A DNA stretch of 64,000 nucleotides from NCBI GenBank assembly GCA_964536725.1, contig CAZHYJ010000005.1, positions 3,084 through 67,083 on the forward strand, given 5' to 3'. A program made the position numbers and the translations under genes. Positions 1,955-57,576 of the stretch are shown in pieces; the first letter of the stretch is position 1; every line of letters starts with the position of its first letter. The stretch comes from an uncultured Gammaproteobacteria bacterium (GTDB lineage: Bacteria > Patescibacteriota > Patescibacteriia > Magasanikbacterales > GWA2-37-8). The notes below the pieces were generated by a model. The model saw nothing but the letters and a program-made list of their open reading frames with translations. It searched no databases and was not told the DNA's origin.

Positions 1955-1993
1955 CAAAAAAATATGCCGATCGGACTGATCGGCATATTTTTA
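1955..1993. terminator. Bidirectional intrinsic terminator between convergent genes
   Basis: An A-run, then stem atatgccgat/atcggcatat, then a T-run. It sits between the YkgJ (+) stop and the uvrA-paralog (-) stop. A near-identical stem occurs at 44029-44058. Confidence 0.6.
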
Positions 1994-4669: not shown

Positions 4670-5434
4670 TCAAGCGGCTTCTCTATAGTCTTCTTCTCTT
4701 GGACTAACAGCAACCGTGTCTCTGCCTGTAATTTTTCTTCCACCAAACCCACCTGTCTTAGAAGAGACATCTTCTACATTTTCCGTATTCACCAAAGCGC
4801 CGGAATCGCCATTAAACCACTGCCATACCATTTCAACAGGGAAAGTGTTTGTTTTCATTTCAGCACCCATTTTATAGGTCACTCGAATTTTTTTGCCATC
4901 TTCTATAATATCGTAGATATTTGAAAATCTATCTTTACCACCATCCACTATTCTAATATTTAACAGATCACCTTTGTATTTTGATTTCAATATCGAATCC
5001 AACCATTCAGCTGCTTTCCTGTCTTCTGTTTTATATTTTTTATAATACAAATCCGGATGATTATTTTTACAATCTGATTGGAGAGACAAAAATTCCTTAA
5101 CCCTAATTCTTCTTGGCGGCATGCTTTCATCTTCTTCAAAACCATCTTTAACAAGCGGTTGGACTAACACTAGATCCTCCGTTTGACCAGGCATATTATC
5201 CTTAAGCGGTGCACTAATCATTCGTCCTAACTCATACTTTCCATTAGCCGATGGTATCCAAACAACTTTCCCCATCATCGCCGTTGCTTCTCGGTAGAGC
5301 CGACTTCTTTCTCTTTCATTAACATTTTCCTCTATATTACCCACCGCCGCTGGCCTTGATTCTGGGGACTTTTCCCCTGCTTTAGCATATTTTTCTAATT
5401 CATTATAAAACCCTCCCATCATTCCTTCTCTCAT
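4670..5434 (-). CDS. Hypothetical protein (254 aa) between the uvrA paralog and uvrB
   Basis: Long ORF in the same operon orientation. Gly-rich C-terminal tail (GGFGGRKITGRD). No recognisable motif. Confidence 0.45.
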   Translation of the reverse strand: MREGMMGGFYNELEKYAKAGEKSPESRPAAVGNIEENVNERERSRLYREATAMMGKVVWIPSANGKYELGRMISAPLKDNMPGQTEDLVLVQPLVKDGFEEDESMPPRRIRVKEFLSLQSDCKNNHPDLYYKKYKTEDRKAAEWLDSILKSKYKGDLLNIRIVDGGKDRFSNIYDIIEDGKKIRVTYKMGAEMKTNTFPVEMVWQWFNGDSGALVNTENVEDVSSKTGGFGGRKITGRDTVAVSPREEDYREAA

Positions 5435-5477: not shown

Positions 5478-7544
5478 CTATTTTTTTCCACCGACAATCT
5501 TGTTTTTACCCAGACCTTTCCTCAACACATCAACCTCGTCTCGCAAAATCGCCGCCAACTCAAACTCCAGATCTTTAGCCGCTTCACGCATCTGCTGTTC
5601 TTTTTCTTTGATAATTTCCCCCACCGGACGACCATCGCCCAGCAGATCTAATTCTAAAATATCTTTAATTCTTTCTTTGCCTTTTCTTTTACCTGCTTTT
5701 TCTTTGCTACCAGAAATGCCAAATTCTTCTAAAATATTTCTAATACTTTTCACGATCGTCTTCGGCGTAATACCATGTTTCTTGTTGTACGCCAACTGTA
5801 CTTTCCGGCGACGATCTGTCTCTTCAATCGCGCGTTTAATTGAACCAGTAATATTATCCGCATACAAAACCACCCGACCATTAGCGTTGCGCGCGGCACG
5901 GCCGATAGTTTGAATCAAACTAGTGGTACTACGCAAAAATCCTTCCTTATCTGCATCCAAGATCGCTACGAGCGACACCTCAGGCATGTCCAACCCTTCA
6001 CGCAAAAGGTTGACGCCGATAATTACATCAATCTCGCCCTTGCGTAGGGCGGCGATAATCTCAATTCGTTCAAGTGTTAAAATATCGCTGTGTAAATATT
6101 TTACCTTTACTTTCTTTTGTAATAAATAATCACTCAAATCTTCCGCCATTTTTTTAGTTAAAGTGGTAACCAATACTCGCTCGTTCACTTTAACGCGTTC
6201 ATCAATCATCACCATCAAATCTTCGATCTGCGATTTTACCGAACCATCTTTTTTGCCTGTCACCGGTCGGATGATCACCTCGGAATCAACCAAACCTGTT
6301 GGACGCACCACCTGCTCTACCACTTGTTGGCTAGCAGTTAATTCATATTCATCTGGAGTAGCCGAAACATATACCGTCTGTACCACCCGGCTTTCAAATT
6401 CTTCATAACGCAACGGCCGATTGTCTCGCGCACTCGGCAACCTAAACCCATGTTCCACCAAAATATCTTTACGTGCCTTGTCGCCATTGTACATCCCCCG
6501 AATCTGGGGCACGGTCATATGCGACTCATCGATCACGGTTAAGAAGTCCGGTGAACAATATTTAAAATAATCCAACAACGAAAAAGGCGGCTCACCTGCG
6601 GCGCGATTTTCAAAATGACGGGAGTAGTTTTCAATACCATTACAATAACCAAGATTTTGGATCATTTCCAAATCATAATTCACCCGACGTTTTAATCTCT
6701 CATATTCCAAAACTTTTCCTTCATCTTCAAATTGTTTTAATTGTTCTGCCAACTCCGCTCGAATCGAAAGAACCGCTTTGTCACGTGCCGCCGGACTAGC
6801 GACATAATGCCGAGCGGGAAAAATCCACGCATCCGAAACTTCGCGTTTTACTTTCCGCGTCACCGGATCCACCTGTTCAATCAAATCGATTCTCTCCCCC
6901 ACTTCGAAACGATAGATCATTTCTTCGTTCACCGGCATCAGCTCAAACACCTGGCCATGCAAACGAAAACTACCCCGTTTCAAATCACTGTTAGTTCTTT
7001 CAAATTGCATCTCCACTAATTGTGCCAACAATTCTTCGCGATTGAGCTTTTGATCAACTGTTAGATGCAAAACAATTTTTTCATATTCTGCCGGCGAACC
7101 CAAACCATATATCGCAGAAACTGAGGCGACGATAATCACATCCTTACGCATCAGCAAAGCTTGGGTGCAAGCATGGCGCAAACGATCGATCTCTTGATTG
7201 ATCTGTGCTTCTTTTTCGATGTAGGTGTCAGAGTGTGGTAGATATGCTTCAGGTTGGTAGTAGTCATAATAGGAAACAAAATATTCCACCGCATTGTCCG
7301 GAAAAAATTCACGGAATTCATTGCACAACTGCGCCGCTAAAGTTTTGTTGTGGGCGATGACCAAAGTCGGCAGCTTTACCTCATTAATCACATTGGCAAT
7401 CGTAAAAGTTTTACCCGAACCGGTAACACCAAGCAATGTCTGTTTAGACATTTTTTGTTTCAACCCTGCCACCAGCTTTTCAATCGCTTCCGGCTGATCA
7501 CCGGCGGGCTTCATTTTAGTTTGTAATTTAAAAATCTCTTCCAT
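5478..7544 (-). CDS. uvrB: Excinuclease ABC subunit B (UvrB)
   Basis: GVTGSGKTFTIANVI Walker A; helicase motifs; C-terminal UVR-like coiled coil (EQQMREAAKDLEFELAAILRDE). Confidence 0.93.
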   Translation of the reverse strand: MEEIFKLQTKMKPAGDQPEAIEKLVAGLKQKMSKQTLLGVTGSGKTFTIANVINEVKLPTLVIAHNKTLAAQLCNEFREFFPDNAVEYFVSYYDYYQPEAYLPHSDTYIEKEAQINQEIDRLRHACTQALLMRKDVIIVASVSAIYGLGSPAEYEKIVLHLTVDQKLNREELLAQLVEMQFERTNSDLKRGSFRLHGQVFELMPVNEEMIYRFEVGERIDLIEQVDPVTRKVKREVSDAWIFPARHYVASPAARDKAVLSIRAELAEQLKQFEDEGKVLEYERLKRRVNYDLEMIQNLGYCNGIENYSRHFENRAAGEPPFSLLDYFKYCSPDFLTVIDESHMTVPQIRGMYNGDKARKDILVEHGFRLPSARDNRPLRYEEFESRVVQTVYVSATPDEYELTASQQVVEQVVRPTGLVDSEVIIRPVTGKKDGSVKSQIEDLMVMIDERVKVNERVLVTTLTKKMAEDLSDYLLQKKVKVKYLHSDILTLERIEIIAALRKGEIDVIIGVNLLREGLDMPEVSLVAILDADKEGFLRSTTSLIQTIGRAARNANGRVVLYADNITGSIKRAIEETDRRRKVQLAYNKKHGITPKTIVKSIRNILEEFGISGSKEKAGKRKGKERIKDILELDLLGDGRPVGEIIKEKEQQMREAAKDLEFELAAILRDEVDVLRKGLGKNKIVGGKK

Positions 7545-18363: not shown

Positions 18364-18436
18364 GCGCCCATAGCTCAGGGGTTAGAGCACCGCCCTTATA
18401 AGGCGGGGGTCGATGGTTCGAAGCCATCTGGGCGCA
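18364..18436 (+). tRNA. tRNA-Ile with anticodon UAU (reads AUA)
   Basis: Hand-folded cloverleaf: acceptor gcgccca/tgggcgc, D stem gctc/gagc, anticodon stem ccgcc/ggcgg with loop CTTATAA (34-36 = TAT), T stem gatgg/ccatc with loop TTCGAAG, discriminator A. Body resembles a tRNA-Ile(GAU) sequence (…CTGATAAG… in the standard isoacceptor). No encoded CCA. Confidence 0.75.
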
Positions 18437-18438
18437 CT

Positions 18439-20621: not shown

Positions 20622-23432
20622 TTATAAATACTTTCCCGTCTGGGTTTTTTTGTTTTTCTTGATGTCAGCTGGCGTGCCTTCGGCAATTAATTGACCGCCG
20701 CCTTTGCCTCCCTCTGGGCCGAGTTCGATTACCCAATCGGAGTAGTTGATTACATCTACGTTGTGTTCGATTACCAAAACGGTATTCCCCTTCTCTACCA
20801 ATCGCTGTAACACACCCAAAAGATTTTGAATATCGGCAAAATGTAAACCAGTGGTTGGCTCATCTAAAATATACAAAGTCTTGCCCGTAGCTGAACGCAC
20901 CAACTCTGTCGCTAATTTTATTCTTTGCGCCTCACCACCCGACAATGTGGTCGCTGGCTGACCAAGGCGTAAATAACTCAAACCCACTGCTCGGAGCAGA
21001 TCCAGTTTGTCGGCCAAAGCTGGCACATCATGAAAAAATTTGTATGCTTCTTCCACTGTCATCTGCAAAACATCGGCGATATTTTTGTTGTGATGATGCA
21101 CCTCTAACGCTTCTTGGTTATAGCGCGAACCATTACATTCGTTACACACTACAAACACATCCGCTAAAAATTGCATCGGGATACGAACATAACCCTCACC
21201 GGCACAAGCCTCACATCGTCCACCACCTTTAACATTGAAACTAAACTTACCCGCATCATACCCGCGTAAGCGCGCCTCTTGCAAATTGGAAAACAGATCA
21301 CGGATTAAAGTAAAGATACCGGTATAGGTAGCAGGATTAGAACGTGGAGTCCGACCAATTGGTGCCTGATCTACAGCGATAACCTTATCAATATTGTCCA
21401 TTCCTTTTATCTCTTTGTGTTCGCCCGGTTCGTCTTTGGCACGATAAAACTTCTTGAGCAAGGCTTTAGACAAAACCTCACCAATCAGAGTAGATTTACC
21501 TGAACCAGAAACACCAGTAACACAAACCAATTTGCCGAGCGGAATACCGACAGTAATATTTTTTAAATTAAACGCTTTCGCCCCCACAATCGTCAAACTG
21601 TTTTTGTTTGGCTTTTTCAACTCACCTGCTAAATTCTTCTTACTGACCGGAGCTTTTTCCAAAGTAATTTTTTCTTGACCAGACAAAAACAGACCAGTTA
21701 AGGATGATTTATTTTTCTTCACCTCCGCCACCGTACCCGCCGCAATGATTTCTCCGCCATACACGCCCGCCCCTGGACCAACGTCGATTAGATAGTCGGC
21801 CGCTTCCATCATCGCCGCATCGTGCTCCACCACAATTACTGAATTACCCAAATCACGTAAAAACTTTAATGTTCCAATTAACTGCTGGTTGTCACGGGGA
21901 TGCAAACCCATCGAGGGTTCGTCCAATACATATATCACACCAGTTAAACCCGAAGACAACTGCGAAGACAACCGTACGCGTGTAATCTCACCACCAGACA
22001 AAGTATTTAGTGATCGGTCTAAACTTAAATATTCCAAACCTACTTTTTCTAGATTAGTTAAACGTGGTAATAATTCTTTAACAATCGGCGTAACGATCAC
22101 TGATTTAGCTTTGTCTACACCAATTTTTTTCAACACTACCTGATTTTCCGCCACACTCATACCAGACAAATCAGCGATACTGTATCCACCCAACTTTACC
22201 GCCAAAGATTCCGGACGTAACCGTTTGCCTTTACATTCTGGACACACCATCTCACGCATATATTGTTCTACTTCTTTGCGCACATAATCAGAGGTAGTCT
22301 GCAAATGACGCTCACGCAAATCATTTACCACACCAACAAAAGGAGCCGTTTTGTTTTCTATCGTATACACTTCCTTGCCCGTACCATACAAAATGGTCTC
22401 ACGCACATTTTCGGGTAAATTGTCCCAAGCAATATTTAAAGAAAAATGGTGCTTCTCAGCCACTACTGCCAACATCTTTTGATACCAAACTTGATTGCCG
22501 GTAATGCGAGTCCAGGGTTGAACTGCGCCTTCAGCCAAAGTTAAGCGTGGATTAGGGATAACCAAATTCACATCTACTTCCATGGTTAGACCTAAACCCG
22601 TACAACGCGGACAAGCACCATATGGACTATTAAAACTAAAACTACGCACATCCAATACTGGCAAAGTACGATCACATTTCGGACACAAACCAACAGTGGA
22701 AAAAAATTCTTCTGTTGTATTGTTTTTAGCAATCAAAAGACCGTTGCTAAATTCAAGTGCCAGATCAACTAATTTTGTCGGATTATCTTTTTTAATATCC
22801 TCAATCTTACCAACCATCACCGCAATATCATGAATTACTCCAGGTTTAAATGAGCGCTTGGCGAACTCCGGCAATTTCATCACTTCACCATTAATCATCA
22901 CCCATTCATATCCCGATTTTTCAATCTTGTCCAAAATTACTCGTTGCTCAACCTGACCACAACGCACCAGTGGAGAAAATATTGACACCGCCCCGCGCCG
23001 TGCCATCTTGCGCACATTCTCTGAAATTTCACCGGGAGTATTCGCCAAAACCCGCACCTTACATTCCGGACAATATTGTTCACCGGCGCGCGCAAAAAGT
23101 AAACGCAAATAATCGTAAATTTCTGTTACGGTTCCAACCGTCGAACGTGGATTTTGCGAAAATACTTTTTGATCAATGGCGATCGTCGGTGACAACCCAT
23201 CAATTCCATCCACATCCGGCTTGTCGCGCATTTCCATGAACTGGCGTGCATAGGCCGAGAGTGATTCAGCATAACGACGCTGTCCTTCAGCGTAGATAGT
23301 ATCAAATGCCAAAGAAGATTTCCCAGAACCAGACAAACCCGTGATTACCACGAGTTTGTTTTTTGGAATTTCGATGTTTACGTTTTTCAAATTGTGGACG
23401 CGCGCGCCACGAATAACAATTTTATCTGGCAT
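20622..23432 (-). CDS. uvrA: Excinuclease ABC subunit A (canonical, 936 aa, with insertion domain)
   Basis: Tandem ABC modules ([18 protein letters not shown]), three Zn modules, and about 125 aa between CPRCTGLG and CPECKGKRL. Confidence 0.93.
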
Positions 23433-23440
23433 AGTTAATC

Positions 23441-24805
23441 TTATTTAAACAAATAATCATAGACTTTATAGTCAGCGCTCTCATCCATATCATAAATTTT
23501 TTCTGCGTCAACATTTGCTAACATACCCGATGGATCTTTTAGCTTCTCAAGCGAAATAAAATATTTTTTATTGATTTTATCAGCGTTCTTTAAAAAGAAA
23601 CCCTGATCACCCAGATCGACAACTGACCCATTATCAAAACCAACTAAGTGCGCCTCGTCTTTAGGGTCCCAGTTTTCATTCATCTCAAACATCAAGACAA
23701 AACCCCGTAATCCTTTATGGCTGCCAGCACAACGCTTAGCCGCTTCATCCAAATCAGCCACATCAGCATCAATTAGATAGGTCTGATTTTTATCATCAAT
23801 CTTACCGCCATAATCACCATTACTCACATCTGTTGTATCTCTGTCCTCACAAACTGCCCATAACTCTGATTCACCCACATTTATTGCTGGATAATCCCAA
23901 GTTTCAAGCTTTAAACCTTCAAGAGGGTGAATTTCTTTCTCAAGAGAATTATAAGCAACCTTACCTCCAATCAAACCAGCACGACAAACATACAAATTTT
24001 TCGTCGGCTGTTTGTAGTCTGGAGCACAGAGTTGCATCTTGCTATCACTCCTCGGTTCACAAAAATCCCCCACACAAGTATTGCCCCCACTGTTTTTTAC
24101 ATAAAATTGCCTGCCGCAGGCGAATTCTTTCGTTCGACTAAAAGTTAAATCGAAGGAGGCGGTCTTATATTTATCTTTATCAACTAATTCCCCTGGCTCA
24201 GCAGCAAAAGCAAAGCTAGTAGAAGACGGGATTTTACTACAATAGTCCGGCACTATAGAACTAGATCGCACCATAAACGTCTGTGGCAACCGCAAATTCA
24301 CCAACGCCGGATTGATTGTGCTTAAAATCACATAGGAAAGATACGCGATCAGTAAACCAATCAACGCCCCGCCAATACGTTTCTTTGCGCTACTAATCGC
24401 CTCACTGCTCCCAGCGGAAGTCACCCATTGCACCCCAGCGATAATTATCATAATCGCCGCCAAAATGCCGACCACACTAATAATGTAGTTGTAATTTACA
24501 AAAAGAAACTCACCAATATCTTTAAACGTTGTCTGTCCGCCAAATTTAATTTGTGTTTCTGTCACTCCGGCCGGCAAACATTTTCCCCATCCCGTCTTAT
24601 TACACGGCTCCTCCCCCTGCAGCCAACCACCCTCCAAAACTTGTTGTGTAGCATCCGGATTAAATTGTTTTCTGGCTGCAACACAAGCTTCCTTTTCCCA
24701 ACAAATTGGATTAAACTCGGGAATCAATTCGGTGTCCGCAGCGCGCACAGAAAAAACAGGCAGGAGCAGCGCTCCTAACAGTAATACAAAAAAAATTCGC
24801 TTCAT
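23441..24805 (-). CDS. Secreted Cys-rich protein with a VirB2/TrbC-like two-helix membrane hairpin (paralog of 52418 and 54043)
   Basis: Signal peptide [22 protein letters not shown] and a Cys-rich N-terminal domain. Central [53 protein letters not shown] is nearly identical to the equivalent segments of the other two paralogs. The 280-aa C-terminal domain has about 10 Cys. Confidence 0.6.
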
Positions 24806-24806
24806 A

Positions 24807-25592
24807 CTATTTGCTTAATTTAGAAAAAAACGCTTCCCACGCTTCCCACGGCACCACACCTTCAATCTTTTCACCATTTACAAAGAATGTCGGCGTGCCA
24901 TTCACACCCAATTTAAACCCATCGGCATAGTCACGATTTATTTCCGTCACCATCGTTTGGTTATTAAAACAGTCGGTCAATTTTTTGTAATCCAACCCCG
25001 TCAGACCCGCTACTTCCTTTAGATCATTAGCAGAAATATTCTCGGGCAAACTATCCTGATTTGTATACAACCAATCATGCACTGGCCAAAACAACCCTTG
25101 ATTGTAAGCACAACCGGCCAACTCTGCCATTTTGTTGGCCCCTGGATGCAATGACTCCACGGGAAAATCACGCACAATCAATTTTATTTTTTGCCCATAT
25201 TTTGCCAGCACTCGTTTCATAATCGGCAAAGCTGTTTTACAATTTGGACATTTAAAATCAACAAACTCCACAATCACAATCTCAGCATTGGCATTCCCTA
25301 AAAATGGATCGTCAGTAGTTTCAATTTCAGTGCGCTTAACAAATGCCGGGCCAGTATTACTGCCTGAAGCACTAAATTCACCATATATTTTTTGCGTCAG
25401 TGCCGCTCCACGCCCCGCCTTAATCTCACGCCAGTAATAAAATGTCAGACCACCAAAACCCAAAATACCCGCCACCACCAACGCCCCCAACCCAACCAAA
25501 GCCACTTTCCAACCACTGTGATACCAATGTTTGACAGGAAAAGGTTGATTTTGCATATGTATAGTAATAGTTAGACAAGCATAGTATACCAT
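24807..25592 (-). CDS. DsbA-like thiol:disulfide oxidoreductase (thioredoxin fold, membrane-anchored)
   Basis: N-terminal TM, CxxC active site (FKCPNCK), DsbA-like length. Encoded 1 nt upstream of the Cys-rich protein. Confidence 0.75.
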   Translation of the reverse strand: MVYYACLTITIHMQNQPFPVKHWYHSGWKVALVGLGALVVAGILGFGGLTFYYWREIKAGRGAALTQKIYGEFSASGSNTGPAFVKRTEIETTDDPFLGNANAEIVIVEFVDFKCPNCKTALPIMKRVLAKYGQKIKLIVRDFPVESLHPGANKMAELAGCAYNQGLFWPVHDWLYTNQDSLPENISANDLKEVAGLTGLDYKKLTDCFNNQTMVTEINRDYADGFKLGVNGTPTFFVNGEKIEGVVPWEAWEAFFSKLSK

Positions 25593-31148: not shown

Positions 31149-31155
31149 CCCCTTG

Positions 31156-31672
31156 TTCATTATTGGTAATCGCTCCCAAGTAATTGGGAAGAGGAAAGTC
31201 CGAACATCTCCAACGCAAGTTGGGAAAAAGACAGTGGGTAACGCCCACCCCCTAACCTGCAAAGTGTTAGGGCGGGAAAGCGGCACAGAGACAATACTAC
31301 TTTGTCCGCCGAAGCCTTGGCGAAGGAGGATCCAACCGACCCACCTCCGCTAAAGCTACGGCGGGCAAGGGAAAGGTGAAAAGCGCATGGAGGTTTTGGT
31401 TCTAGATCAAAGCTACTATGCCCCATCCACAGCAATGTGGAATGGTGCCAAGCCCTGTCTGATGCAAGAGCAGCCTTGCAACTGGAATATCTGGTTACAT
31501 GGAAAAGTTCGCTCGCGTTGATTCCGTTGGTAACAACGGGACAAGATAAATGATTACCTCCTGTTAAAAAAGCCAAGGCCAAAAGATACCGAGAAATCCA
31601 ATACGCGGAAAGTAGCGGTGTAAAATGGTTCGGCTCAACAACAGAAGACAAAATTCGGCTTATAATAATGAA
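31156..31672 (+). ncRNA. rnpB: RNase P RNA (bacterial type A-like), apparently enlarged
   Basis: Conserved blocks AGAGGAAAGTCCG (P4 5' strand), GGGTAACGCC-like, GGGAAAGGTGAAA, GCCAAAAGATACC, ACAGAAGACAAAATTCGGCTTA (P4 3' strand / CR-V). P1 pairs tcattatt with aataatga. Ends are approximate. The spacing between the conserved blocks is about 470 nt, against about 300 nt in E. coli M1 RNA. Confidence 0.85.
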
Positions 31673-31675
31673 ACT

Positions 31676-31706
31676 AAAAATCCGACCTTAATTGGTCGGA
31701 TTTTTT
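31676..31706. terminator. Intrinsic terminator after rnpB (possibly bidirectional)
   Basis: Stem aaaaatccgacc/ggtcggatttttt. The stop of the minus-strand ORF 31688-32047 lies inside the hairpin. Confidence 0.7.
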
Positions 31707-37530: not shown

Positions 37531-37953
37531 TCACTTGGTGAACGGCCGCTCCCGTGGCGGCGCGGGTACGGACGGCTGAACGGCGGGGAACCCCGGGGCG
37601 AGACAGAAGATCTCTCCGCGCAGCCCGCCGGCTTCGTCGCTTGAGTACGCGACGCGGATCTCGTACCCCGGGGGGCAGATCCACTGCGAGGGCACCGGCT
37701 TGCCGGCGACGTCCGTCGCACGACACACCATCCCCACACCGCCCGCACCTCCTTCGTCATGGCAGCTCATCACGGCCTCCGAACGGACCACCACCGACGG
37801 CGTCGTTCGAGAGGACGACGTCCGAAGGGGGGGAAGCTCCTCGTCGTGTTCGCCGGCGACGATCGGCTTTCCGAAAGCCCCGCCACACCACGCCACGAGC
37901 ACGACGATCCCCACAGCCACCAGCACCGCAACCTTCTTCGATCCTTCCGACAT
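37531..37953 (-). CDS. Small secreted Cys-containing hypothetical protein on a GC-rich island
   Basis: Within about 560 bp of roughly 65-70% GC. GGAGG lies 7 nt before the ATG. Signal or TM segment VAVLVAVGIVVLVAWCGGAFG. A GC-rich stem (gggcgacgca...tgcgtcgccc) lies downstream. Other-frame ORFs here are Arg-rich GC artefacts. Confidence 0.5.
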   Translation of the reverse strand: MSEGSKKVAVLVAVGIVVLVAWCGGAFGKPIVAGEHDEELPPLRTSSSRTTPSVVVRSEAVMSCHDEGGAGGVGMVCRATDVAGKPVPSQWICPPGYEIRVAYSSDEAGGLRGEIFCLAPGFPAVQPSVPAPPRERPFTK

Positions 37954-38111
37954 ACCGTTTGCCTCCTGGCAAATCAGCCCACCAATTTGGGCATTGTACC
38001 GAACAAAATACTTCATAAATATTCTGATCGGTAAAATCCCCAAAAACACCATAAGTAACAGCTAAAGATAGCAAACTTTTGCCTTTTTGTCAATATACTG
38101 TTAAAATCAGA

Positions 38112-50515: not shown

Positions 50516-51751
50516 ATGTCCCCCAACCTAAAACGCATCCTCCTAATCGCCGGCCTCACAATTGTCACTGCGCTGATTGCCTACGGCCTCTATTTTATGT
50601 TTCAAAAGACCGCCCCTGGAAGCAAAATCCCTGGACAAACCACAACTACTACCGGCGGAAAATTACCCACTGCCGGAGAACGCCAGCCGGGTGCCACCAC
50701 CACCCCCGGCACCATTGGTCCAGATGGACAACTACTCCCCACCGCCGGATATATCCCCCAAACCACACCGAACTATTACAAACCAACTCCGGTAACACAA
50801 ATCACTTCTGACTATGCCACCTTTCCTTCTTTAAGTAAAAATAATGCATTGCGCTATTACAATTCATCCGACGGAAAGTTTTATCGCGTTCTACCAGACG
50901 GCTCAATCAAAGAACTGGCCGACCAGGTATTTTACAATGTACAAAAAATCACTTGGGCAAATACAAAAGATGAGGCCGTATTAGAATACCCCGATGGCGC
51001 GAAAATAATCTACAATTTTGAAACAAAAAAACAAGTCTCAATTCCGAGTCACTGGGAAGACTTTTCTTTTTCTCCCGAGAGCAATGAACTCGCCGCTAAA
51101 AGCATCGGCCTCTCTCCGGAAAATCGCTGGTTGATAACTTTTAATGACGATGGTACTGGCACCAAGCTCATTGAACCAATGGGAGAAAACGCGGACAAAG
51201 TACAAATTGCTTGGTCCCCTAGCCGTCAAGTTGTTGCCTTTTCACAAACCGGCGAACCTTTAGGACTAGACAGAAAAGAAGTATTGTTGGTCGGTTTAAA
51301 CGGTGAAAATTTTAAATCAACCATTGTGGAAGGAAATGATTTTCGTCCCCAATGGTCACCTACCGGCAGCCGTTTACTTTACAGCGTCTACAGCGCACGC
51401 AGTAGCTATCAACCAGAATTATGGATTGTTGATGCCTACGGCGAAAACATCGGTGACAACCGCCAATTATTAAAAATAAATACTTGGGCAGATAAATGTA
51501 CTTTTCAAAACAACACGACTTTGTATTGCGCTGTACCACGCAACCTACCAGAAGGATCAGGAATGTTGCCAGAATTAGCTGCCGGTGTTTATGATGACTT
51601 GTACAAAATTGATCTAAAAACTGGTTTAAAAACCGGCATACCACTAGGTGCAGACTACGAAATCAACAATATTTCTTTTGACACTGCGGGAGAAAAAGTA
51701 TTTTTTACTTCCAAAAGTCAAACTGGTATTTTTGAAGTAAAATTAAAATAG
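50516..51751 (+). CDS. Membrane-anchored TolB-like beta-propeller (PD40-repeat) protein
   Basis: N-terminal TM, Thr/Pro-rich linker, then PD40-like repeats (IAWSPSRQVVAFS; PQWSPTGSRLLYS). Confidence 0.5.
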   Translation: MSPNLKRILLIAGLTIVTALIAYGLYFMFQKTAPGSKIPGQTTTTTGGKLPTAGERQPGATTTPGTIGPDGQLLPTAGYIPQTTPNYYKPTPVTQITSDYATFPSLSKNNALRYYNSSDGKFYRVLPDGSIKELADQVFYNVQKITWANTKDEAVLEYPDGAKIIYNFETKKQVSIPSHWEDFSFSPESNELAAKSIGLSPENRWLITFNDDGTGTKLIEPMGENADKVQIAWSPSRQVVAFSQTGEPLGLDRKEVLLVGLNGENFKSTIVEGNDFRPQWSPTGSRLLYSVYSARSSYQPELWIVDAYGENIGDNRQLLKINTWADKCTFQNNTTLYCAVPRNLPEGSGMLPELAAGVYDDLYKIDLKTGLKTGIPLGADYEINNISFDTAGEKVFFTSKSQTGIFEVKLK

Positions 51752-51760
51752 AATAAATAT

Positions 51761-52414
51761 ATGAAACACATCCACAAATTCTATTTGATACTCGGTCTTT
51801 CAGTCTTGGTGCTCGCGAGTATTTTTTTCTGGCAGGCAAAGAAAGCGATTAACATCCGCGTCACTCAAAATGAAACACCCTTAATCAGTGAACAAATCTA
51901 TAATATTTCCCTTGCTGATGATGAAGCGGTGCGCGGAAATCCAGGGGCAGCCATAACCATCATAGAATATTTGGATTTAAACTGCACCGATTGTGTAGAT
52001 AAATACAACGAACTCAACAACTTGGTTGACAAAAATCCGGCCAAATTACGCCTGGTATTAAAATTAGCGGACACTAGCGGACTTTTTGCTCATAACTCAC
52101 AATATGTGAACACTGCTGCATATTGTGCCAACCAACAAAAACGCTATTGGTTATTTTTAGACTCTTTAATGACCAAAGAAAAACGTTGGAGTGAAGAGAC
52201 TATTTTGGCCGCTGCCAGTGAAGCAAAAATCAACCTGACTACTTGGAACAAATGTCGCGAAAACGAAACCACAATCGCCGCAGTAAATTTATCTTTACAA
52301 CTTGCCAAAGAACTGGGTGTAAACACTTCGCCTACCATATTTGTCAACAATCAAAAAATTGACCCTCAAACAGAGGTCAGTTTTACCGAAATAATTAACA
52401 AATTTATCCAGTAA
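51761..52414 (+). CDS. DsbA-like thiol:disulfide oxidoreductase
   Basis: N-terminal TM, CxxC (LDLNCTDCVDKY), thioredoxin-fold length, and an extra Cys pair (YCANQQ...KCREN). Immediately upstream of the two Cys-rich paralogs. Confidence 0.7.
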   Translation: MKHIHKFYLILGLSVLVLASIFFWQAKKAINIRVTQNETPLISEQIYNISLADDEAVRGNPGAAITIIEYLDLNCTDCVDKYNELNNLVDKNPAKLRLVLKLADTSGLFAHNSQYVNTAAYCANQQKRYWLFLDSLMTKEKRWSEETILAAASEAKINLTTWNKCRENETTIAAVNLSLQLAKELGVNTSPTIFVNNQKIDPQTEVSFTEIINKFIQ

Positions 52415-52417
52415 AAT

Positions 52418-54016
52418 ATGACAAAAAAAGTGGCGCAAAAAGTTTTGGTAGTTGCAATATTAATGATTGCTGCCATCTGGCCGCACGCCACTCTTTTGGC
52501 CGCTACAGATTTACCAATCGGATCACCTTGTAAAGATAATTCAGACTGTAGATCGAATGATTGTGAAACAAGTGAAAAAAAAGATGCAAGCAACAACAAC
52601 TTGCGGTTTTGTGACTGTAACGATGCCGGTGACTGCCAACAACAATACGGCGCCCCAGCCAGCGGGGTGTGGAAGTGCGTAGACGGAGCGTCGGTAACTG
52701 CGGATTTGGACTATTGCATAAATGAAGCTAATAATAGAATAGAGTCAACACTGCCTGAATATGAGACTAACACTTCGTTAATGGGCAGACTACACACCGC
52801 TCTTTTTGACACCAAAGCGTTGCAAGCCACCTTGATGCAAGAAGTAATGACTTTTAAGCCCGGACTAGAAATCCGCTTACCTGGATTAGAATTTAGCGAC
52901 TTAGCAAAAAAAGTAGACGAGGAAGGCTTCTTGCATATTCCCTGGATTGGAGAATTTTTAAAAGCAATATACAATTTTGGACTTGCTATAATTAGTATCG
53001 TGGCAGTGGTGATGATAATAATGCAAGGAGCAAAAATTATTGTTTCCGGCGGCGAATCAAAAGTGGAAGGTTACAAAAAAATCGGACAGATTGCGATCGG
53101 TTTGATGATCGCTTGGGGGTCTTATGCCATACTTTATACAATCAATCCGGCGTTGGTTCAGTTTAATAGTTTAAAAGTAAAATATATTGAAAAAAAACCA
53201 TTAACACTTGAATTTTTATCTAATGAGTCATATCAAAAAATCACAGGAAATGCTGTAATGTCAAAATCTGACTCTTTCCAAAAAGCCAAAGAAATGAGCG
53301 CGGCAGCTGGTTTTGATCCTTGTGTTATGCAAGCCATCCTATTAACTGAATCTGGTGGTAATCCGGCCGTAATTGGACACGATGAAAATGCTGGCGTCGC
53401 CAAACCGATACCAGCTCGAAGAGAATTTTTGCTATCAGGAAAAAAATATTCCGGAGCAACATTTGACCCCTCTCCTGGAACCAGTAATAATTTTGATGTT
53501 AATGAGAATAAAAGAAAAATATGGAATGATGATGGTGGAAAAAATTTAAATACCGCCGTTGGCCCACCAGATTATGGACTCGATTGGAGATTCACCCACG
53601 GATTCGGATTAGGACAGATCACAATAACCGGAAAAGAATATTGTTCACCTGGTGTTAGAGGTGCAAAAAGATGTGGTAAGTGCTATACCATTCCTGAGCT
53701 ATTATCTCCACAATCTTCAATTGAAATCTCTATTTGTCTAATGAAAAAAAATATAGAAAAGGCAAAAAGTAAGGGTTGGAAAAGTGAAGACGATATTATA
53801 CGCGCCGCCTTTTGGGGATTTGCTGCTGGACCTGGCAATATACCCAGCCCATCTTCTGGTAGCGAAATACTCTACGGAAAAAAAGCAGACGGCACAAGAA
53901 AACCTGGTGATACAAAATGGGAACCATACAAACAATGTAAAAGTAATCCGACTGTACCAAAAGAATTAACACCCGACCCAGAGGATCCCAAGGAGATTGA
54001 ACCGGAACAATCGTAG
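52418..54016 (+). CDS. Cys-rich secreted protein with a VirB2/TrbC-like hairpin plus a C-terminal lytic-transglycosylase (SLT)-like domain
   Basis: Signal peptide and Cys-rich N-domain (PIGSPCKDNSDCRSNDCETSEKKDASNNNLRFCDC). Hairpin AIISIVAVVMIIMQGAKIIVSGGESKVEGYKKIGQIAIGLMIAWGSYAILYTINPAL. C-terminal LLTESGGNPAVIG ... GFGLGQIT resembles SLT family-1 motifs (ES..NP.A; GLMQI). Confidence 0.55.
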   Translation: MTKKVAQKVLVVAILMIAAIWPHATLLAATDLPIGSPCKDNSDCRSNDCETSEKKDASNNNLRFCDCNDAGDCQQQYGAPASGVWKCVDGASVTADLDYCINEANNRIESTLPEYETNTSLMGRLHTALFDTKALQATLMQEVMTFKPGLEIRLPGLEFSDLAKKVDEEGFLHIPWIGEFLKAIYNFGLAIISIVAVVMIIMQGAKIIVSGGESKVEGYKKIGQIAIGLMIAWGSYAILYTINPALVQFNSLKVKYIEKKPLTLEFLSNESYQKITGNAVMSKSDSFQKAKEMSAAAGFDPCVMQAILLTESGGNPAVIGHDENAGVAKPIPARREFLLSGKKYSGATFDPSPGTSNNFDVNENKRKIWNDDGGKNLNTAVGPPDYGLDWRFTHGFGLGQITITGKEYCSPGVRGAKRCGKCYTIPELLSPQSSIEISICLMKKNIEKAKSKGWKSEDDIIRAAFWGFAAGPGNIPSPSSGSEILYGKKADGTRKPGDTKWEPYKQCKSNPTVPKELTPDPEDPKEIEPEQS

Positions 54017-54042
54017 TTATAAAAATACTAGCTAAACAAAAT

Positions 54043-55686
54043 ATGCCAGTCAGAAAAAAAATATTCCTATCAATAATTTTTGCCTTGCTGTTTTTTGTGT
54101 TACAGACATCTACGACATCGGCTGTTGACAAACTTCCTATTGGATCGCCTTGCAGTGGGCCTGTCAGTGGCAATTCAGAATGCCGTTCAAACGACTGTGA
54201 GGGCAGCCAAAAGAAAGATGCTTCCGGCAAAACCTTAAGTTTTTGTGACTGCGTTACTGCTAATGATTGTAACATTGAATATGGCACCCCGACTACCGGA
54301 AAATGGGAGTGCAGTGATGGTGCTGCGTATACTTATAATTCTGATTATTGTTATAACGCCACCACCAGAGAAGTTAAAACAGCTTCAGGTATAAACAAAA
54401 ATGCCACCCCCATAAGCAAATTAACAGATGCAATTTTTGACTCCCCTGCCACCCAGGCCGCATTGTTAGAAAAAGTAAAAACCTTTACACCTAATTTGGA
54501 AATTACAATTCCTGGAGTTGAATTCAGCAACCTAGCAGACACCACCGACGAAGAAGGGTATTTAAACATCCCTTGGATTGGAGAATATATTGTCGGTGTC
54601 TATACTTACGCCTTGGGTATCGCTGCCATTATCGCAGCTATTATGATTATTATCGCCGGTGTACGCTGGACTACTTCTGGTGGGAACAGCGAAGCAATTG
54701 GCAGTTCAAAAAAACGTATTGGCGGTGCATTAGTTGGCCTACTAATCGCCTACCTTTCTTACGCAGTATTAAATATTATCAATCCCGGATTAACAACGTT
54801 CAAAAGTTTAAAAGTAAAATATATTGAACGAGAAGAAATTCTTTTTGGTGACAATACTATGGATGAAACAGACGACAACACTGGTATTAAAAATACTGAC
54901 AACGCTAGTGATGCTGGATTTTCAGAAAAATTTTCAGAATGTCCAATCAAAATGAGTTCAGGGCCAATTACGAAAATTGGTAAAAATAATAAACCGATAC
55001 CAGATCCAACAGGAAATCAATCTCGAAAACAAGAATTTGTTCAAAAAATATTGGACAACAAAATTCTTACCGGTGACTTCAGCAATCGTGCAATGATGGC
55101 AGCAGAAGCAGCTTCCAAATGTAAAATTTATTTTGGAACCTGCGGACAAGGAACTACTGCTATTTACGCTTTAGCTGGAGTAAACGGTAGTTTCGGCCTT
55201 AATAACAAATGTCTTAAACAAACATGTAATATGGGAGGCGATCCAATAATAAAGAAGCAAACGGTCCGTTCAGTTTACTCTACTAAGATTGGTGGTGTAA
55301 GTGTAGGAAAACTTCTACAAGGCATGATGTGCGAGGGAGTTCCTGTGTGCAAAGGCGCTGGCTGGGATGTAAACTGGAAAGAACAGTGCTTTACAGACCC
55401 AAAAGCGGCATCAAATAAATTAAAGGAGCTACTAAAAACCACCGGAAAATGGGACGAGGAGCAGTGGTTTAATGATTTGAAACCAGGTGATTATTATAAT
55501 ATTGCAAACTGGAACTCTACTTGTTCGCCAACACATTCTGCTATGTTTTTGGGGTGGAAAGACAAAGCAAACCATGTCGCATTTGAAGCAAGCGGAGATG
55601 CAGGAAATTTTTTTCGTATTTCTACGCGTGATTTTGATAAAAAAGGTGTTGTAATTATTATGATTGAAAGGCCTCAAGATAAATAA
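54043..55686 (+). CDS. Cys-rich secreted protein with a VirB2/TrbC-like hairpin plus a possible C-terminal CHAP/NlpC-P60-like peptidase domain
   Basis: N-domain PIGSPCSGPVSGNSECRSNDCEGSQKKDASGKTLSFCDC parallels 52418. Hairpin [57 protein letters not shown]. The C-terminus has a Cys (FGTCGQG), then a His about 115 aa later (THSAMFLGW), then NHVAFE. Confidence 0.5.
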   Translation: MPVRKKIFLSIIFALLFFVLQTSTTSAVDKLPIGSPCSGPVSGNSECRSNDCEGSQKKDASGKTLSFCDCVTANDCNIEYGTPTTGKWECSDGAAYTYNSDYCYNATTREVKTASGINKNATPISKLTDAIFDSPATQAALLEKVKTFTPNLEITIPGVEFSNLADTTDEEGYLNIPWIGEYIVGVYTYALGIAAIIAAIMIIIAGVRWTTSGGNSEAIGSSKKRIGGALVGLLIAYLSYAVLNIINPGLTTFKSLKVKYIEREEILFGDNTMDETDDNTGIKNTDNASDAGFSEKFSECPIKMSSGPITKIGKNNKPIPDPTGNQSRKQEFVQKILDNKILTGDFSNRAMMAAEAASKCKIYFGTCGQGTTAIYALAGVNGSFGLNNKCLKQTCNMGGDPIIKKQTVRSVYSTKIGGVSVGKLLQGMMCEGVPVCKGAGWDVNWKEQCFTDPKAASNKLKELLKTTGKWDEEQWFNDLKPGDYYNIANWNSTCSPTHSAMFLGWKDKANHVAFEASGDAGNFFRISTRDFDKKGVVIIMIERPQDK

Positions 55687-57028
55687 AAATATGAAACAAA
55701 CTATTCTGTTCCATTGTTCCCACTGCAATGCCCAATTCCAAAAATGGATTGGACGTTGTTTGGAATGCGGACAATGGGGAACGATTGAAAAGTCACAATT
55801 GATTGGTGAAAATACTAGTAAAAAAGAGGTTGCCGAATATGCTCCGGTTAAAACAGTTGGATTAAAAGAAATCGAAGGTAAAAACACTCTACGGATAAAA
55901 ACCAAAACCGAAGAGTTGGATCGCGTATTGGGCGGGGGTATCGTCCCTGGCAGCTTAATTCTCCTAGGAGGCGAACCTGGAATTGGTAAATCTACTTTGG
56001 CCTTACAACTCGCCACTCTCCTCTCCCCCACTTTGTATTTCTCCGGAGAAGAATCCGTTGAACAAATTAAATTACGCGCTGACCGTTTAAAAATTTCTGG
56101 CGCTGGTTTAGAAATCGGCAACTCATCAGTGGTGGAAAATATCATTGCTACTATCAAGACAAAAAAACCAAAACTAGCCATTATCGACTCCATCCAAACC
56201 GCTCGCTCCAATGAAGCCGACGGTGAAAGTGGTAGTATCACCCAAGTTCGTGCCGCCACTGTTAAGTTTATGGAAACAGCTAAGACTACTGGTACCACGA
56301 TTGTTTTGATCGGCCAGGTCACCAAAGAAGGTGGTGTTGCTGGACCAAAGACATTGGAGCATCTGGTGGATGTGGTGATGTATTTAGAAGGTGATAAATA
56401 TCATCAATATCGTATCCTCCGTGCTGCCAAGAATCGCTTTGGCTCTACTGATGAAATTGGTGTATTCTCAATGACCGAAAATGGATTAGAAGAAGTGAAA
56501 AATCCTTCTGCCGCCTTTTTGTCCGGTCGTGGAGATCCGGTGCCCGGTACTGCAATCACCTGTCTAATGGAAGGCACCCGACCGATTCTTGTTGAAGTTC
56601 AGGCCCTCGTTACCAAAACCAATTTTGGCTACCCACAACGCCGTGCCTCTGGATTCGATTTAAACCGCTTACAAGTTTTAATCGGTGTTTTATCCAAACG
56701 CGCCAAATTACCACTTGAATCATTTGATGTGTTTTTAAATGTGGTCGGTGGAGTTAACGTGGAAGAGCCGGCTGCAGATCTGGCGGTAATCCTCGCTCTC
56801 GCCTCCGCTTTAAAAGAAAAAACTTTACCGGCTGATTTAGCAGCATTCGGTGAAGTGGGATTAGGAGGAGAGGTACGACCAGTGGCACAACAAAAAAGAC
56901 GTTTGGAAGAAATTAAAAAAATGGGATTAAAATTTGCAGTGACACCAGTAATGAATGAAAAGATTGGTGATATAAAAATAGCACCGATAAAGAATGTGCA
57001 AGAAGTGGTGGAAAAAATAGTGAAATAA
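55664..57028 (+). CDS. radA: DNA repair protein RadA (Sms)
   Basis: Zn ribbon CSHCNAQFQKWIGRCLECGQWG, RecA-like Walker A GGEPGIGKSTL, KNRFG motif and a Lon-like C-terminal domain. Confidence 0.92.
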   Translation: MKGLKINKNMKQTILFHCSHCNAQFQKWIGRCLECGQWGTIEKSQLIGENTSKKEVAEYAPVKTVGLKEIEGKNTLRIKTKTEELDRVLGGGIVPGSLILLGGEPGIGKSTLALQLATLLSPTLYFSGEESVEQIKLRADRLKISGAGLEIGNSSVVENIIATIKTKKPKLAIIDSIQTARSNEADGESGSITQVRAATVKFMETAKTTGTTIVLIGQVTKEGGVAGPKTLEHLVDVVMYLEGDKYHQYRILRAAKNRFGSTDEIGVFSMTENGLEEVKNPSAAFLSGRGDPVPGTAITCLMEGTRPILVEVQALVTKTNFGYPQRRASGFDLNRLQVLIGVLSKRAKLPLESFDVFLNVVGGVNVEEPAADLAVILALASALKEKTLPADLAAFGEVGLGGEVRPVAQQKRRLEEIKKMGLKFAVTPVMNEKIGDIKIAPIKNVQEVVEKIVK

Positions 57029-57047
57029 AAAACAAGCATAAAAAAAT

Positions 57048-57080
57048 CTCCCGACCAGAATATGGTCGGGAGTTTGTATT
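57048..57080 (+). terminator. Intrinsic terminator after radA
   Basis: Stem ctcccgacc/ggtcgggag with loop agaatat, followed by tttgtatt. Confidence 0.7.
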
Positions 57081-57192
57081 AGATAGGACCGACGACGGAC
57101 ACATCCAGTTTGTTGCGCTACGTAAACGCATCAAACTTTTTGTATTCGTCGTCGGGTATGGGCGGAAAAATGCGGGATACACGGGGAAAGGA

Positions 57193-57414: not shown

Positions 57415-57520
57415 TCTTCCCCCCTAGGAAGAAACCAACCCGACCGAAATTGGCAGGAATGAAGGACCTAATGTCCTCACAATTCCCAAGCGGGTTGAAA
57501 ACGAAGCTCAGTATATCAAA

Positions 57521-57554
57521 AAACCGAACAAAAGTCAATGTTTGCTCGGTTTTA
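57521..57554 (-). terminator. Intrinsic terminator after recG
   Basis: Minus-strand hairpin aaaaccgagcaaacattgacttttgttcggtttttt followed by a T-run. Confidence 0.65.
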
Positions 57555-57576
57555 ATGCAAAATATATCCATTAACC

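Follow-up and report, generated by a model that had tools for sequence, protein, structure and literature searches.

A VirB2-type hairpin protein paired with a DsbA-like protein in a Magasanikbacteria-type CPR bacterium: a candidate disulfide-stabilised surface protein

Does the repeated neighbourhood of a DsbA-like gene and a gene for a Cys-rich protein with a pilin-like hairpin indicate that the two products act together, or does it reflect chance or inherited gene order? The question is raised by two minus-strand ORFs of a Magasanikbacteria-type CPR bacterium: 23441..24805, whose 454-aa product is called T here, and 24807..25592, which encodes a DsbA-like thioredoxin-fold protein of 261 aa (DsbA1). 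Both lie in a 64-kb stretch of DNA that was analysed as a whole and is referred to as the window. A first-pass annotation of the sequence had regarded the pairing as a functional module and not as chance synteny. We consider T to be probably a DsbA-assisted, hairpin-anchored surface protein, with a probability of about 0.6.

T is composed of a signal peptide, an N-terminal domain with four Cys, a two-helix hairpin and a C-terminal domain with eight Cys, hence twelve Cys in total, and the structure prediction of the C-domain proposed in the first-pass annotation yielded a confident model (pLDDT 87.7). The signal peptide (aa 1-22; 24740..24805, minus strand) is recognizable by a hydrophobic N-terminus followed by VRA-A, with the predicted cleavage site preceding the last Ala, and its region is modelled as a helix (aa 2-18) by AF2. 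The putative extracytoplasmic N-domain (aa 23-96; 24518..24739, minus strand), which had not been noticed before, is a small alpha/beta domain with a pLDDT of ~90. Its four Cys columns (C35, C41, C68 and C76) are invariant across 71 homologues, and matches of the corresponding HMM (T_N) were confined to Magasanikbacteria-type orthologues. The hairpin (aa 97-169; 24299..24517, minus strand) comprises helices 97-129 and 134-164, separated by a short loop in the AF2 model, with the basic residues K141-K142-R143 at the start of helix 2 and a linker segment of 12 residues behind it. Hydrophobic segments of T extend over aa 1-25, 100-133 and 143-169. The remainder (aa 170-454; 23444..24298, minus strand) forms the predicted extracytoplasmic C-domain, which is mainly beta with few helices and mostly modelled with a pLDDT >90.

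The assignment of the hairpin to the VirB2/TrbC type was borne out at the family level, where we regard the homology to PF18895 (T4SS_pilin) as secure: this profile was matched by all 71 full-length homologues at E <= 1e-3 (best 1.9e-10), and PF04956 (TrbC/VirB2) by six of them. T alone is sub-threshold with 23.1 bits (E 8.1e-5), the curated cut-off of 26.6 bits being just above it, while syntenic Uhrbacteria-type proteins reached 27.6-33.3 bits and thus exceeded it. T also matched the NCBIfam model of the Mbov_0395 pilin-like conjugal transfer protein (E 2.5e-4). The hairpin peptide quoted in the first-pass annotation corresponds to T residues 116-167, and the same hairpin indeed recurs in two paralogues: aa 97-172 of T are 62% identical to the product of ORF 54043..55686 and 47% identical to that of ORF 52418..54016, with no likeness outside the hairpin. 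These three ORFs are the only ones in the window that match a hairpin HMM. T thus has the pilin-like succession of a signal peptide and two hydrophobic helices with a short basic loop, but it is not a small pilin of ~70-120 mature residues made up mostly of the hairpin, since globular domains of 75 aa and 285 aa flank the latter.

The C-domain of T was correctly described as distinct from those of its paralogues; it measures 285 aa instead of 280 and contains eight Cys (189, 230, 244, 249, 260, 274, 319 and 359) rather than about ten. All twelve Cys of T are at least 97% conserved among the 71 homologues (34-60% identity), and the full-length conservation at this divergence, with every Cys kept, disposes of the suspicion that the gene might be a pseudogene. 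The single homologue missing two Cys has lost C189 and C244 together, as expected of a disulfide pair; the evidence on connectivity consists of this joint loss. No Pfam match to the C-domain was obtained in any of the 71 members, and PDB sequences searched with a profile of it yielded no match at E <= 1. Known folds were likewise not matched by Foldseek, neither in PDB (best E 0.15) nor in BFVD, where only generic TM-hairpin matches appeared (best E 0.12). Among 1.84 billion representative proteins, the C-domain was found in 168 cluster representatives, always behind a hairpin and in no other architecture. It is present in ~120 of 125 relatives and is therefore a conserved, not a swappable, cargo. 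D383, E384 and H386 are conserved to 66-83%, and the conservation table of the 71 homologues contains no strictly conserved residues of catalytic type, so that the domain is probably non-enzymatic; our guess is a lineage-specific domain that most likely serves as a binding or structural surface module.

The partner gene was identified correctly as DsbA-like, with 97.3 bits against PF13462 (E 1.4e-27; cut-off 23.2) and 59.6 bits against PF01323 (E 4.7e-16; cut-off 25.6). It had been described as a membrane-anchored CxxC protein encoded downstream of T after a 1-nt gap. The gap (TAG-T-ATG), the TM anchor and the CxxC motif, a CPNC, all hold, but transcription runs along the minus strand for both genes, which puts DsbA1 upstream of T. 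The catalytic domain follows a single TM anchor near the N-terminus (aa 26-53) and is therefore predicted to be on the extracytoplasmic side, and CPNC (aa 115-118) is accompanied by the cis-Pro loop GTPT (aa 232-235) and a second, conserved Cys pair, C161/C208. As judged from the orthologue alignment, the true start is probably Met13 (nt 25556). T is flanked by the DsbA-like gene on the secG side and by uvrA (20622..23432, minus strand; assigned from the ORF translation) on the other, co-oriented and 8 nt downstream. A scan for promoters and terminators gave no signal exceeding shuffle expectation by which DsbA1, T and uvrA would be separated; uvrA is probably part of the same transcript, and it is context that stands outside the mechanism proposed below.

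As claimed initially, the pairing occurs at two distant loci, with the DsbA gene preceding the hairpin gene both at locus 1 (minus strand) and at 51761-55686 (locus 2, plus strand). The window contains two DsbA-like and three hairpin genes, and each DsbA-like gene directly precedes a hairpin gene; DsbA-like genes are thus not scattered throughout the window beside unrelated genes. When the order of the 47 genes was randomized, 0.3% of the permutations placed a hairpin gene directly behind each of the two DsbA genes, and 1.3% showed adjacency on either side. The recommended comparison of gene neighbourhoods revealed that the adjacency is kept at both loci in every relative examined. The DsbA-then-hairpin order was present in five loci retrieved via T homologues and in 12 of 80 species-level loci retrieved with the locus-1 DsbA as query, this type alone being used for the locus scan since an alignment of both DsbA paralogue types was too divergent. 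The order DsbA-hairpin-UvrA is conserved in relatives, and the pairing of the second DsbA with a hairpin gene in five of them. Even in Uhrbacteria-like genomes, where the ectodomains are unrelated and carry 26-42 Cys, the hairpin protein of locus 1 still follows DsbA. The pairing is real and old.

At locus 2, DsbA2 (51761..52414, plus strand; PF13462 E 1.2e-19) has a TM anchor at aa 3-27 and a CTDC motif at aa 75-78, and is only about 25% identical to DsbA1 by BLAST. It is followed by hairpin paralogue A (52418..54016, plus strand; 532 aa, 14 Cys; hairpin HMM E 3.6e-30) and paralogue B (54043..55686, plus strand; 547 aa, 17 Cys; PF18895 E 1.2e-4, hairpin HMM E 2.2e-37). Paralogue A consists of a signal peptide, an N-domain with eight Cys, the hairpin and a C-domain with motifs resembling SLT and goose lysozymes (ES ... 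GLGQ ... AAG). Its enzyme matches are weak (SLT E 0.037, EmtA E 0.016), and a profile of 16 homologues retrieved EmtA (E 0.04) and goose lysozymes (E 0.048 and 0.07) from PDB. Paralogue B shares the type of N-domain and the hairpin with A and has a different C-domain of unmatched fold, with an invariant Cys (GxCG) and His (THSAxFLGW) in the alignment. A reading of this domain as an NlpC/P60- or papain-like peptidase, based on GxCG, PGDYY and THSAxFLGW, was not confirmed: no PDB sequence matched, the AF2 model had a pLDDT of only 64.9, and its top fold matches were all insignificant, the best one of papain fold being phytochelatin-synthase-like (E 1.2-3). Directly upstream of DsbA2, a TM-anchored beta-propeller-like protein of 411 aa is encoded (50516..51751, plus strand; weak PD40 match). 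Its gene keeps this position in all locus-2 relatives, with orthologues 74-83% identical in relatives L008 and L009 and genes for 412-413 aa in L091-L093, and it may be a further member of the cluster.

Across 89 relatives, the locus-2 hairpin proteins carry at least nine different enzyme families. Domains seen as cargo comprise SLT, Amidase_2, M15, VanY, C39-like, M23, GDSL lipase, metallophosphatase and glucosaminidase. The cargo domain differs at the same syntenic position, which makes A and B, unlike T, carriers of swappable cargo.

On the basis of these data, we propose that T is exported and, after cleavage of its signal peptide, held in the cytoplasmic membrane by the VirB2/T4SS_pilin-type hairpin. 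The loop end with KKR would point toward the cytoplasm, and the N- and C-domains would be located outside the cell, stabilised by two and four disulfides, respectively. DsbA1 is very probably co-transcribed with T and, given that the gap is only 1 nt, may be translationally coupled to it. The membrane-tethered DsbA1 would form or proof-read the disulfides of T as it leaves the translocon, acting as a dedicated folding partner and not simply as the general oxidase of the cell. The hairpin proteins T, A and B are the sole Cys-rich exported proteins in the window and its obvious DsbA substrates, since all other exported or membrane proteins there have 0-2 Cys each. T is the member of the family with a conserved cargo; at locus 2, the same hairpin bears interchangeable envelope-degrading enzymes.

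The designation of DsbA1 as an oxidoreductase may be too simple for the locus-1 type as a whole. In 9 of 18 locus-1 orthologues, CxxC is replaced by CxxS/T. These proteins cannot be classical oxidases, as the second active-site Cys is lost, and their T partners keep all Cys. Among other DsbAs, the replacement was seen in 1 of 12 (Fisher p = 0.024, not phylogenetically corrected). A DsbB homologue was not detected in the window by tblastn, nor was any multi-TM CxxC candidate for DsbB or VKOR; a DsbB gene (PF02600) was seen near locus 2 in a single relative, L093. The frequent CxxS/T and the lack of a re-oxidising candidate in the window both weigh against the role proposed for DsbA1.

Each of the two loci is one conserved syntenic block, RNase J-SBP-SecG with DsbA-hairpin-UvrA at locus 1 and ClpC-...-propeller-DsbA-hairpin(s)-RadA-RecG at locus 2. 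The evidence therefore amounts to two ancient linkages and not to many independent ones, and since RNase J, SBP, SecG and UvrA, or ClpC, RadA and RecG, are as syntenic as the pair itself, adjacency alone is no proof of a functional link. It could accordingly be argued that DsbA1 and DsbA2 are general oxidases that happen to have been inherited beside hairpin genes within housekeeping blocks, the more so as hairpin-linked DsbAs were found in these two blocks only, and as no hairpin gene adjoins the DsbA-like gene at 12 further CPR loci. We regard this as quite unlikely. The same pairing is found in two separate blocks with strongly diverged DsbAs, its spacing is very tight and its order constant, and it has outlasted a complete replacement of the ectodomains, with Cys numbers rising to 42. 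The hairpin proteins are also the only Cys-rich exported ones in the window. Moreover, the uncorrected excess of CxxS/T among the linked DsbAs speaks against this explanation, because a sole general oxidase should not tolerate such a change. The initial view of a functional module is thus supported by conserved adjacency and by its survival of ectodomain turnover, on the strength of two old linkages.

A different role is suggested by the homology of the hairpin to PF18895 and, in six members, PF04956, and by the match to the Mycoplasma ICE pilin-like protein: T could be a true T4SS pilus component, such as a minor pilin or one at the tip. A VirB4-type machine with genes elsewhere would pull it out of the membrane for incorporation into a VirB2-like pilus, the filament would expose its disulfide-stabilised domains, and DsbA1 would be a pilus-assembly factor like TrbB/TraF of F. 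VirB2-like pilins and T4SSs are widespread in Patescibacteria (PMC12102498, PMC12857230), T4SS loci of class ABY1 have been reported with recG and radA, both of which flank locus 2 here, and F-like systems couple pilus assembly with thioredoxin-fold proteins (PMC11315126). However, a Pfam scan of the 37 larger ORFs of the window revealed no VirB4, VirB6, VirD4 or PrgI-like gene, and T is situated between secG and uvrA. Mature T has ~430 aa compared with ~70-120 aa for known VirB2-type pilins, and, given published pilus geometry, a globular domain of 30 kDa per subunit would be hard to fit into the helical lattice. Foldseek retrieved no solved conjugative pilin with the T model, a method by which short hairpins rank poorly. 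A pilus subunit is for these reasons an unlikely identity for T. The hairpin might also be a carrier for secretion and processing, with T being cut at the 12-residue segment after helix 2 and its C-domain released as a soluble extracellular factor. This segment is among the most conserved ones (N165, P166, L173 and P174 at 98-100%) and common to all three paralogues, TrbC and VirB2 are known to be processed C-terminally, and the C-terminal hydrolases of locus 2 would work better if released. Yet neither locus has an associated protease gene, a structural linker at the membrane exit would account for the motif equally well, and in at least one relative, L092, the enzyme domain (Metallophos, aa 43-251) is N-terminal to the hairpin (aa 398-458), an arrangement more in keeping with an anchor than with a signal for C-terminal release, so that we consider release of the C-domain very improbable.

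As a hairpin-anchored protein with a folding partner of its own, T resembles several known systems in part. The VirB2-like pilins of Patescibacteria (Wang et al. 2023, as cited in PMC12857230) share with T the CPR lineage and a homologous hairpin, with a signal peptide, two hydrophobic helices and a basic loop, and they also form several divergent paralogues per genome, including a tandem pair, here A and B. In contrast to them, T, A and B are 430-550 aa in size and have a globular, Cys-rich domain on either side of the hairpin, T has neither virB4 nor another T4SS neighbour among the scanned ORFs of the window, and it has a dedicated DsbA-like partner, whereas the words 'disulfide' and 'DsbA' are absent from PMC12102498. 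F-like T4SSs encode thioredoxin-fold proteins of their own, of which TrbB is a CXXC isomerase for the Cys-rich TraN/U/H and TraF lacks CXXC (PMC11315126). There, too, a secretion or pilus gene set brings along a thioredoxin-fold protein for Cys-rich extracytoplasmic components, and a redox-active CXXC form exists beside forms without the full motif, comparable to CxxS/T among the locus-1 DsbAs. DsbA1 shows a faint match to PF13728 TraF (E 0.12), but DsbA1 and DsbA2 are of the DsbA/Thioredoxin_4 type with an alpha-helical insert and a TM anchor, the proposed client itself bears the pilin-like hairpin, and the pair resides on a monoderm CPR chromosome and not in a plasmid transfer operon.

Membrane-anchored DsbA-like oxidoreductases of monoderm bacteria, such as Bacillus BdbD and the actinobacterial DsbA/MdbA, are required in known cases for pilus components or those of the competence pseudopilus to fold. 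DsbA1 has their N-terminal TM anchor, Thioredoxin_4/DSBA fold, CxxC and cis-Pro loop. It differs from them in that its gene is fixed beside one client family, that half of the orthologues lack the second active-site Cys, and that the window yielded no re-oxidising DsbB/VKOR. Locus 2 is reminiscent of polymorphic toxins, as the N-domain, hairpin and DsbA2 are kept while the cargo is swapped at the same chromosomal position. Unlike in those systems, the cargo of T is conserved, no immunity-like gene is evident, with uvrA directly behind T and radA directly behind the hairpin genes of locus 2, and the carrier is a pilin-like membrane hairpin instead of one of the established toxin-trafficking domains.

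Attachment to host cells is the way of life of CPR/Patescibacteria, and in the single species examined in this respect their T4SS with its arrays of VirB2-like pilins proved essential (PMC12857230, PMC12102498). T represents a conserved sub-family in which a pilin hairpin is fused to large, presumably disulfide-bonded surface domains and has its own thioredoxin-fold partner at each locus, while in its sister genes the hairpin bears varying hydrolases of the cell wall and of lipids. We speculate, as a rather doubtful extension, that in ABY1 Patescibacteria the VirB2-type hairpin may have become a general carrier of disulfide-stabilised cargo, adhesin-like in T and swappable peptidoglycan hydrolases, lipases or phosphatases in the paralogues. 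Exposed on a T4SS-type pilus or at the surface in contact with the host, this cargo would serve to bind the host cell envelope and to breach it; each locus would have its own membrane-tethered DsbA-like assembly factor, which in many lineages would have changed from an oxidase into a CxxS chaperone acting through mixed disulfides. Should the hairpin be a membrane anchor and nothing more, what is left would be more modest, i.e. a lineage-specific family of surface proteins with its own folding catalyst. In this family, the drift of DsbA-like proteins from CxxC to CxxS beside a fixed client can be studied in a natural setting, and its members are testable candidates for surface molecules that may grip or open the host envelope.

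The 454-aa Cys-rich hairpin protein T (ORF 23441..24805, minus strand) has a hydrophobic N-terminus that, as read from the sequence, ends in VRA/A, an N-domain whose four Cys lie at positions 35, 41, 68 and 76, and a 285-aa C-terminal region; between the two, the model places a pair of long, hydrophobic helices (aa 97-129 and 134-164) linked by a short loop, with K141-K142-R143 after it. The hairpin peptide quoted in the first-pass annotation matches T exactly, but the C-domain contains eight Cys rather than about 10, and the whole protein 12. A search of 5.8 billion proteins yielded 183 relatives, most of them full-length, 34-60% identical and from Candidatus Magasanikbacteria and other Patescibacteria (CPR), some bearing the NCBI name 'pilin'. 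Across an alignment of 71 of them, conservation reaches 97% or more at all 12 Cys, and the hairpin and the 12-residue linker after it are the best-conserved stretches. Given these full-length relatives and the Cys conservation, a pseudogene is excluded. The only homologue with 10 Cys lacks both C189 and C244, and this joint loss suggests that the two pair.

The 261-aa ORF of DsbA1 (24807..25592, minus strand), whose start is probably Met13 according to an alignment of orthologues, encodes a Thioredoxin_4/DSBA protein (PF13462, 97.3 bits) with a CPNC motif, a cis-Pro loop and a single N-terminal TM segment, in agreement with the earlier description of a membrane-anchored CxxC thioredoxin-fold neighbour. 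The reported 1-nt gap is also present (TAG-T-ATG), but DsbA1 lies transcriptionally upstream of T, not downstream. On the same strand, uvrA follows 8 nt 3' of T. The window holds exactly two DsbA-like genes and three hairpin genes, with a hairpin gene directly 3' of each DsbA; at the second locus, DsbA2 (51761..52414, plus strand) precedes the hairpin paralogues A (52418..54016, plus strand, 532 aa) and B (54043..55686, plus strand, 547 aa). This arrangement arose in 0.3% of random gene-order trials, which upholds the proposed recurrence of the pairing at two loci, and DsbA-like genes are not ubiquitous in the window. T, A and B contain 12, 14 and 17 Cys, respectively, versus 0-2 in the other exported or membrane proteins of the window.

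The 936-aa uvrA product (20622-23432, minus strand) is one of two UvrA-type proteins encoded in these 64 kb; the other (1991-4579, minus strand; 862 aa, with a UvrA interaction domain) is separated by one gene (4670-5434) from uvrB (5478-7544). A tRNA-Ile with anticodon TAT (UAU) was detected by ARAGORN at 18364-18437 (plus strand); this anticodon is uncommon in bacteria, where AUA is usually read by a lysidine-modified CAT tRNA. A class A bacterial RNase P RNA (31154-31678, plus strand; 138.5 bits) spans 525 nt against a model of 367 positions, implying sizeable insertions, and the ORF at 31160..31651 (minus strand) is therefore spurious. At 37531-38074 several ORFs overlap on both strands, including one whose 173-aa product has a single TM segment and 6 Cys, in a locally GC-rich segment (46.5% in the 36-38 kb bin versus approximately 42% elsewhere) that matched no RNA family.

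Only the hairpin region (aa 97-172 of T) is common to T, A and B, with 62% identity between T and B and 47% between T and A, and an HMM of this region found no fourth copy in the window. T itself scores below the cut-off of the T4SS_pilin model PF18895 (23.1 versus 26.6 bits) and weakly matches DUF6112 and a Mycoplasma ICE pilin-like protein family. When scanned singly, however, all 71 homologues matched PF18895 (best E 1.9e-10) and six matched PF04956 (TrbC/VirB2). These matches securely establish the hairpin as homologous to the VirB2-like pilins of Patescibacteria, and its designation as VirB2/TrbC-like is borne out. Such pilins, already described with PF18895 in 1,948 assemblies, frequently form arrays and frequently lie close to virB4 (PMC12102498); in the sole species cultivated and mutagenised, one such array is essential (PMC12857230).

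The AlphaFold2 model of T, based on the 71-sequence alignment, has a mean pLDDT of 87.7, and its C-domain, beta-rich with a few helices, is mostly above 90. Foldseek found no match to the fold in the PDB (best E 0.15) or among viral models (best E 0.12), the family profile matched no PDB sequence, and none of the 71 family members matched Pfam outside the hairpin. When the C-domain by itself was run exhaustively with HMMER against 1.84 billion cluster representatives, just 168 proteins matched. Almost all of them measure 420-600 aa, with the match beginning around residue 170-300, which confines the domain to positions behind a T-type hairpin. Strict conservation is confined to Cys, Gly and aromatic residues, a D-E-x-H patch reaching 66-83%, and we therefore regard the C-domain as probably a non-catalytic, lineage-specific surface domain.

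T and DsbA1 combine two known kinds, a member of the Patescibacteria VirB2-like pilin family and a DsbA-like protein. We consider it most likely (probability roughly 0.6) that T would be exported via Sec and anchored in the membrane by its hairpin, while DsbA1, co-expressed and tethered to the membrane, would carry out the oxidative folding or proof-reading of its two ectodomains. That T additionally enters a T4SS pilus is doubtful: although its hairpin belongs with the pilins, T is far bigger (about 430 aa when mature) and its hairpin is flanked by a globular domain at either end; while pilins are often found near virB4, the 37 larger window ORFs scanned against Pfam include no T4SS component. 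Cleavage of T with release of its C-domain appears highly improbable.

Mere synteny of T with a housekeeping oxidase, slightly less probable than pilus entry, has to be weighed against the related genomes. The pair was found in five loci looked up via T homologues and in 12 of the 80 species-level loci that a DsbA1 query retrieved, always with RNase J, SBP and SecG transcribed divergently from DsbA, hairpin protein and UvrA; a hairpin neighbour was absent at 12 DsbA-like loci of other CPR lineages and at all non-CPR loci. The arrangement holds at the five Uhrbacteria-like loci, where DsbA is 32-36% identical; their hairpin proteins, with 26-42 Cys, are not matched by the N-domain and C-domain HMMs of T, and three of these proteins pass the PF18895 cut-off. 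At locus 2, five relatives keep the order in which the propeller-like protein precedes DsbA2 and the hairpin protein(s) are followed by RadA and then RecG. Since the other genes of both surrounding blocks are just as syntenic, the evidence amounts to two ancient linkages. On balance, a functional link is nevertheless favoured: the genes are tightly spaced and constant in order, the two DsbAs are divergent, the pairing persists while ectodomains turn over, and it makes sense biochemically. The functional module proposed earlier remains the better reading.

The active sites of the locus-1 DsbAs also bear on this choice. In the protein alignment, 9 of 18 orthologues, all encoded just 5' of a hairpin gene (loci L003, L005, L014, L015, L017, L020, L030, L035 and L036 in related genomes), carry CPNS, CPNT, CPYT, CPYS, CGYS or CVYS instead of CxxC; the window's DsbA1 is CPNC. 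In these forms the first Cys is retained, as are the cis-Pro loop and the structural pair C161/C208, and the T proteins that accompany CxxS forms have kept their complete Cys set. Only 1 of 12 unlinked CPR DsbA-like proteins has CxxS (Fisher p = 0.024, with no phylogenetic correction). A DsbA acting as the cell's sole oxidase is unlikely to be able to lose its resolving Cys, and the pattern is in keeping with an isomerase or mixed-disulfide chaperone dedicated to its client. It is reminiscent of the F plasmid, where TrbB is a CXXC isomerase of the Cys-rich TraN/U/H and TraF, a thioredoxin fold without CXXC, is required for pilus extension (PMC11315126). No DsbB or VKOR was found in the 64-kb window; the relative L093 has a DsbB gene (PF02600; 12780-13190, minus strand) about 5 kb from its DsbA2-hairpin cluster, with no counterpart in the window.

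The gene that always lies immediately 5' of DsbA2 (50516-51751, plus strand) encodes 411 aa with a TM anchor and faint PD40/beta-propeller matches; its product is 74-83% identical in relatives and may be part of the cluster. The gene between clpC and this one (48200-50497, plus strand) encodes a 765-aa protein that is free of Cys, strongly low-complexity and P/T/Q/E/K-rich; a hydrophobic segment occupies its centre (aa 398-439), and it matches nothing in Pfam. In relatives the gene at this position varies widely in length, from 244 to 573 aa. Downstream are radA and recG (55664-59649). Class ABY1 T4SS loci commonly contain recG, radA and comF (PMC12102498), which raises the possibility of a virB4 locus just beyond the window edge.

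The relatives of A and B share an 8-Cys N-domain and the hairpin but differ in their cargo. Pfam matches among 89 relatives comprised SLT (8), Amidase_2 (7), Peptidase_M15_4 (6), VanY (5), Peptidase_C39_2 (4), GDSL lipase (3), Peptidase_M23 (3), Metallophosphatase (1) and Glucosaminidase (1). At the position between DsbA2 and radA (52418-55686, plus strand, in the window; L008, L009, L091, L092 and L093 in relatives) the cargo varies between genomes, namely SLT-like, Amidase_2, SLT plus GDSL lipase, Metallophos, VanY, Peptidase_M15_4 or without assignment, a cassette-like polymorphism; in one relative the enzyme domain is N-terminal to the hairpin. A carries an SLT/goose-lysozyme-like domain, on weak but consistent signals: the motifs ES, GLGQ and AAG occur in the expected order, and a 16-sequence profile reached EmtA (E 0.04) and goose lysozymes (E 0.05-0.07). 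The C-domain of B found no match. In the literature searched, we found no description of pilin-hairpin/hydrolase fusions, of a DsbA link or of such cargo polymorphism. The greater significance of T lies in its membership of a family of hairpin carriers with swappable, envelope-degrading cargo.
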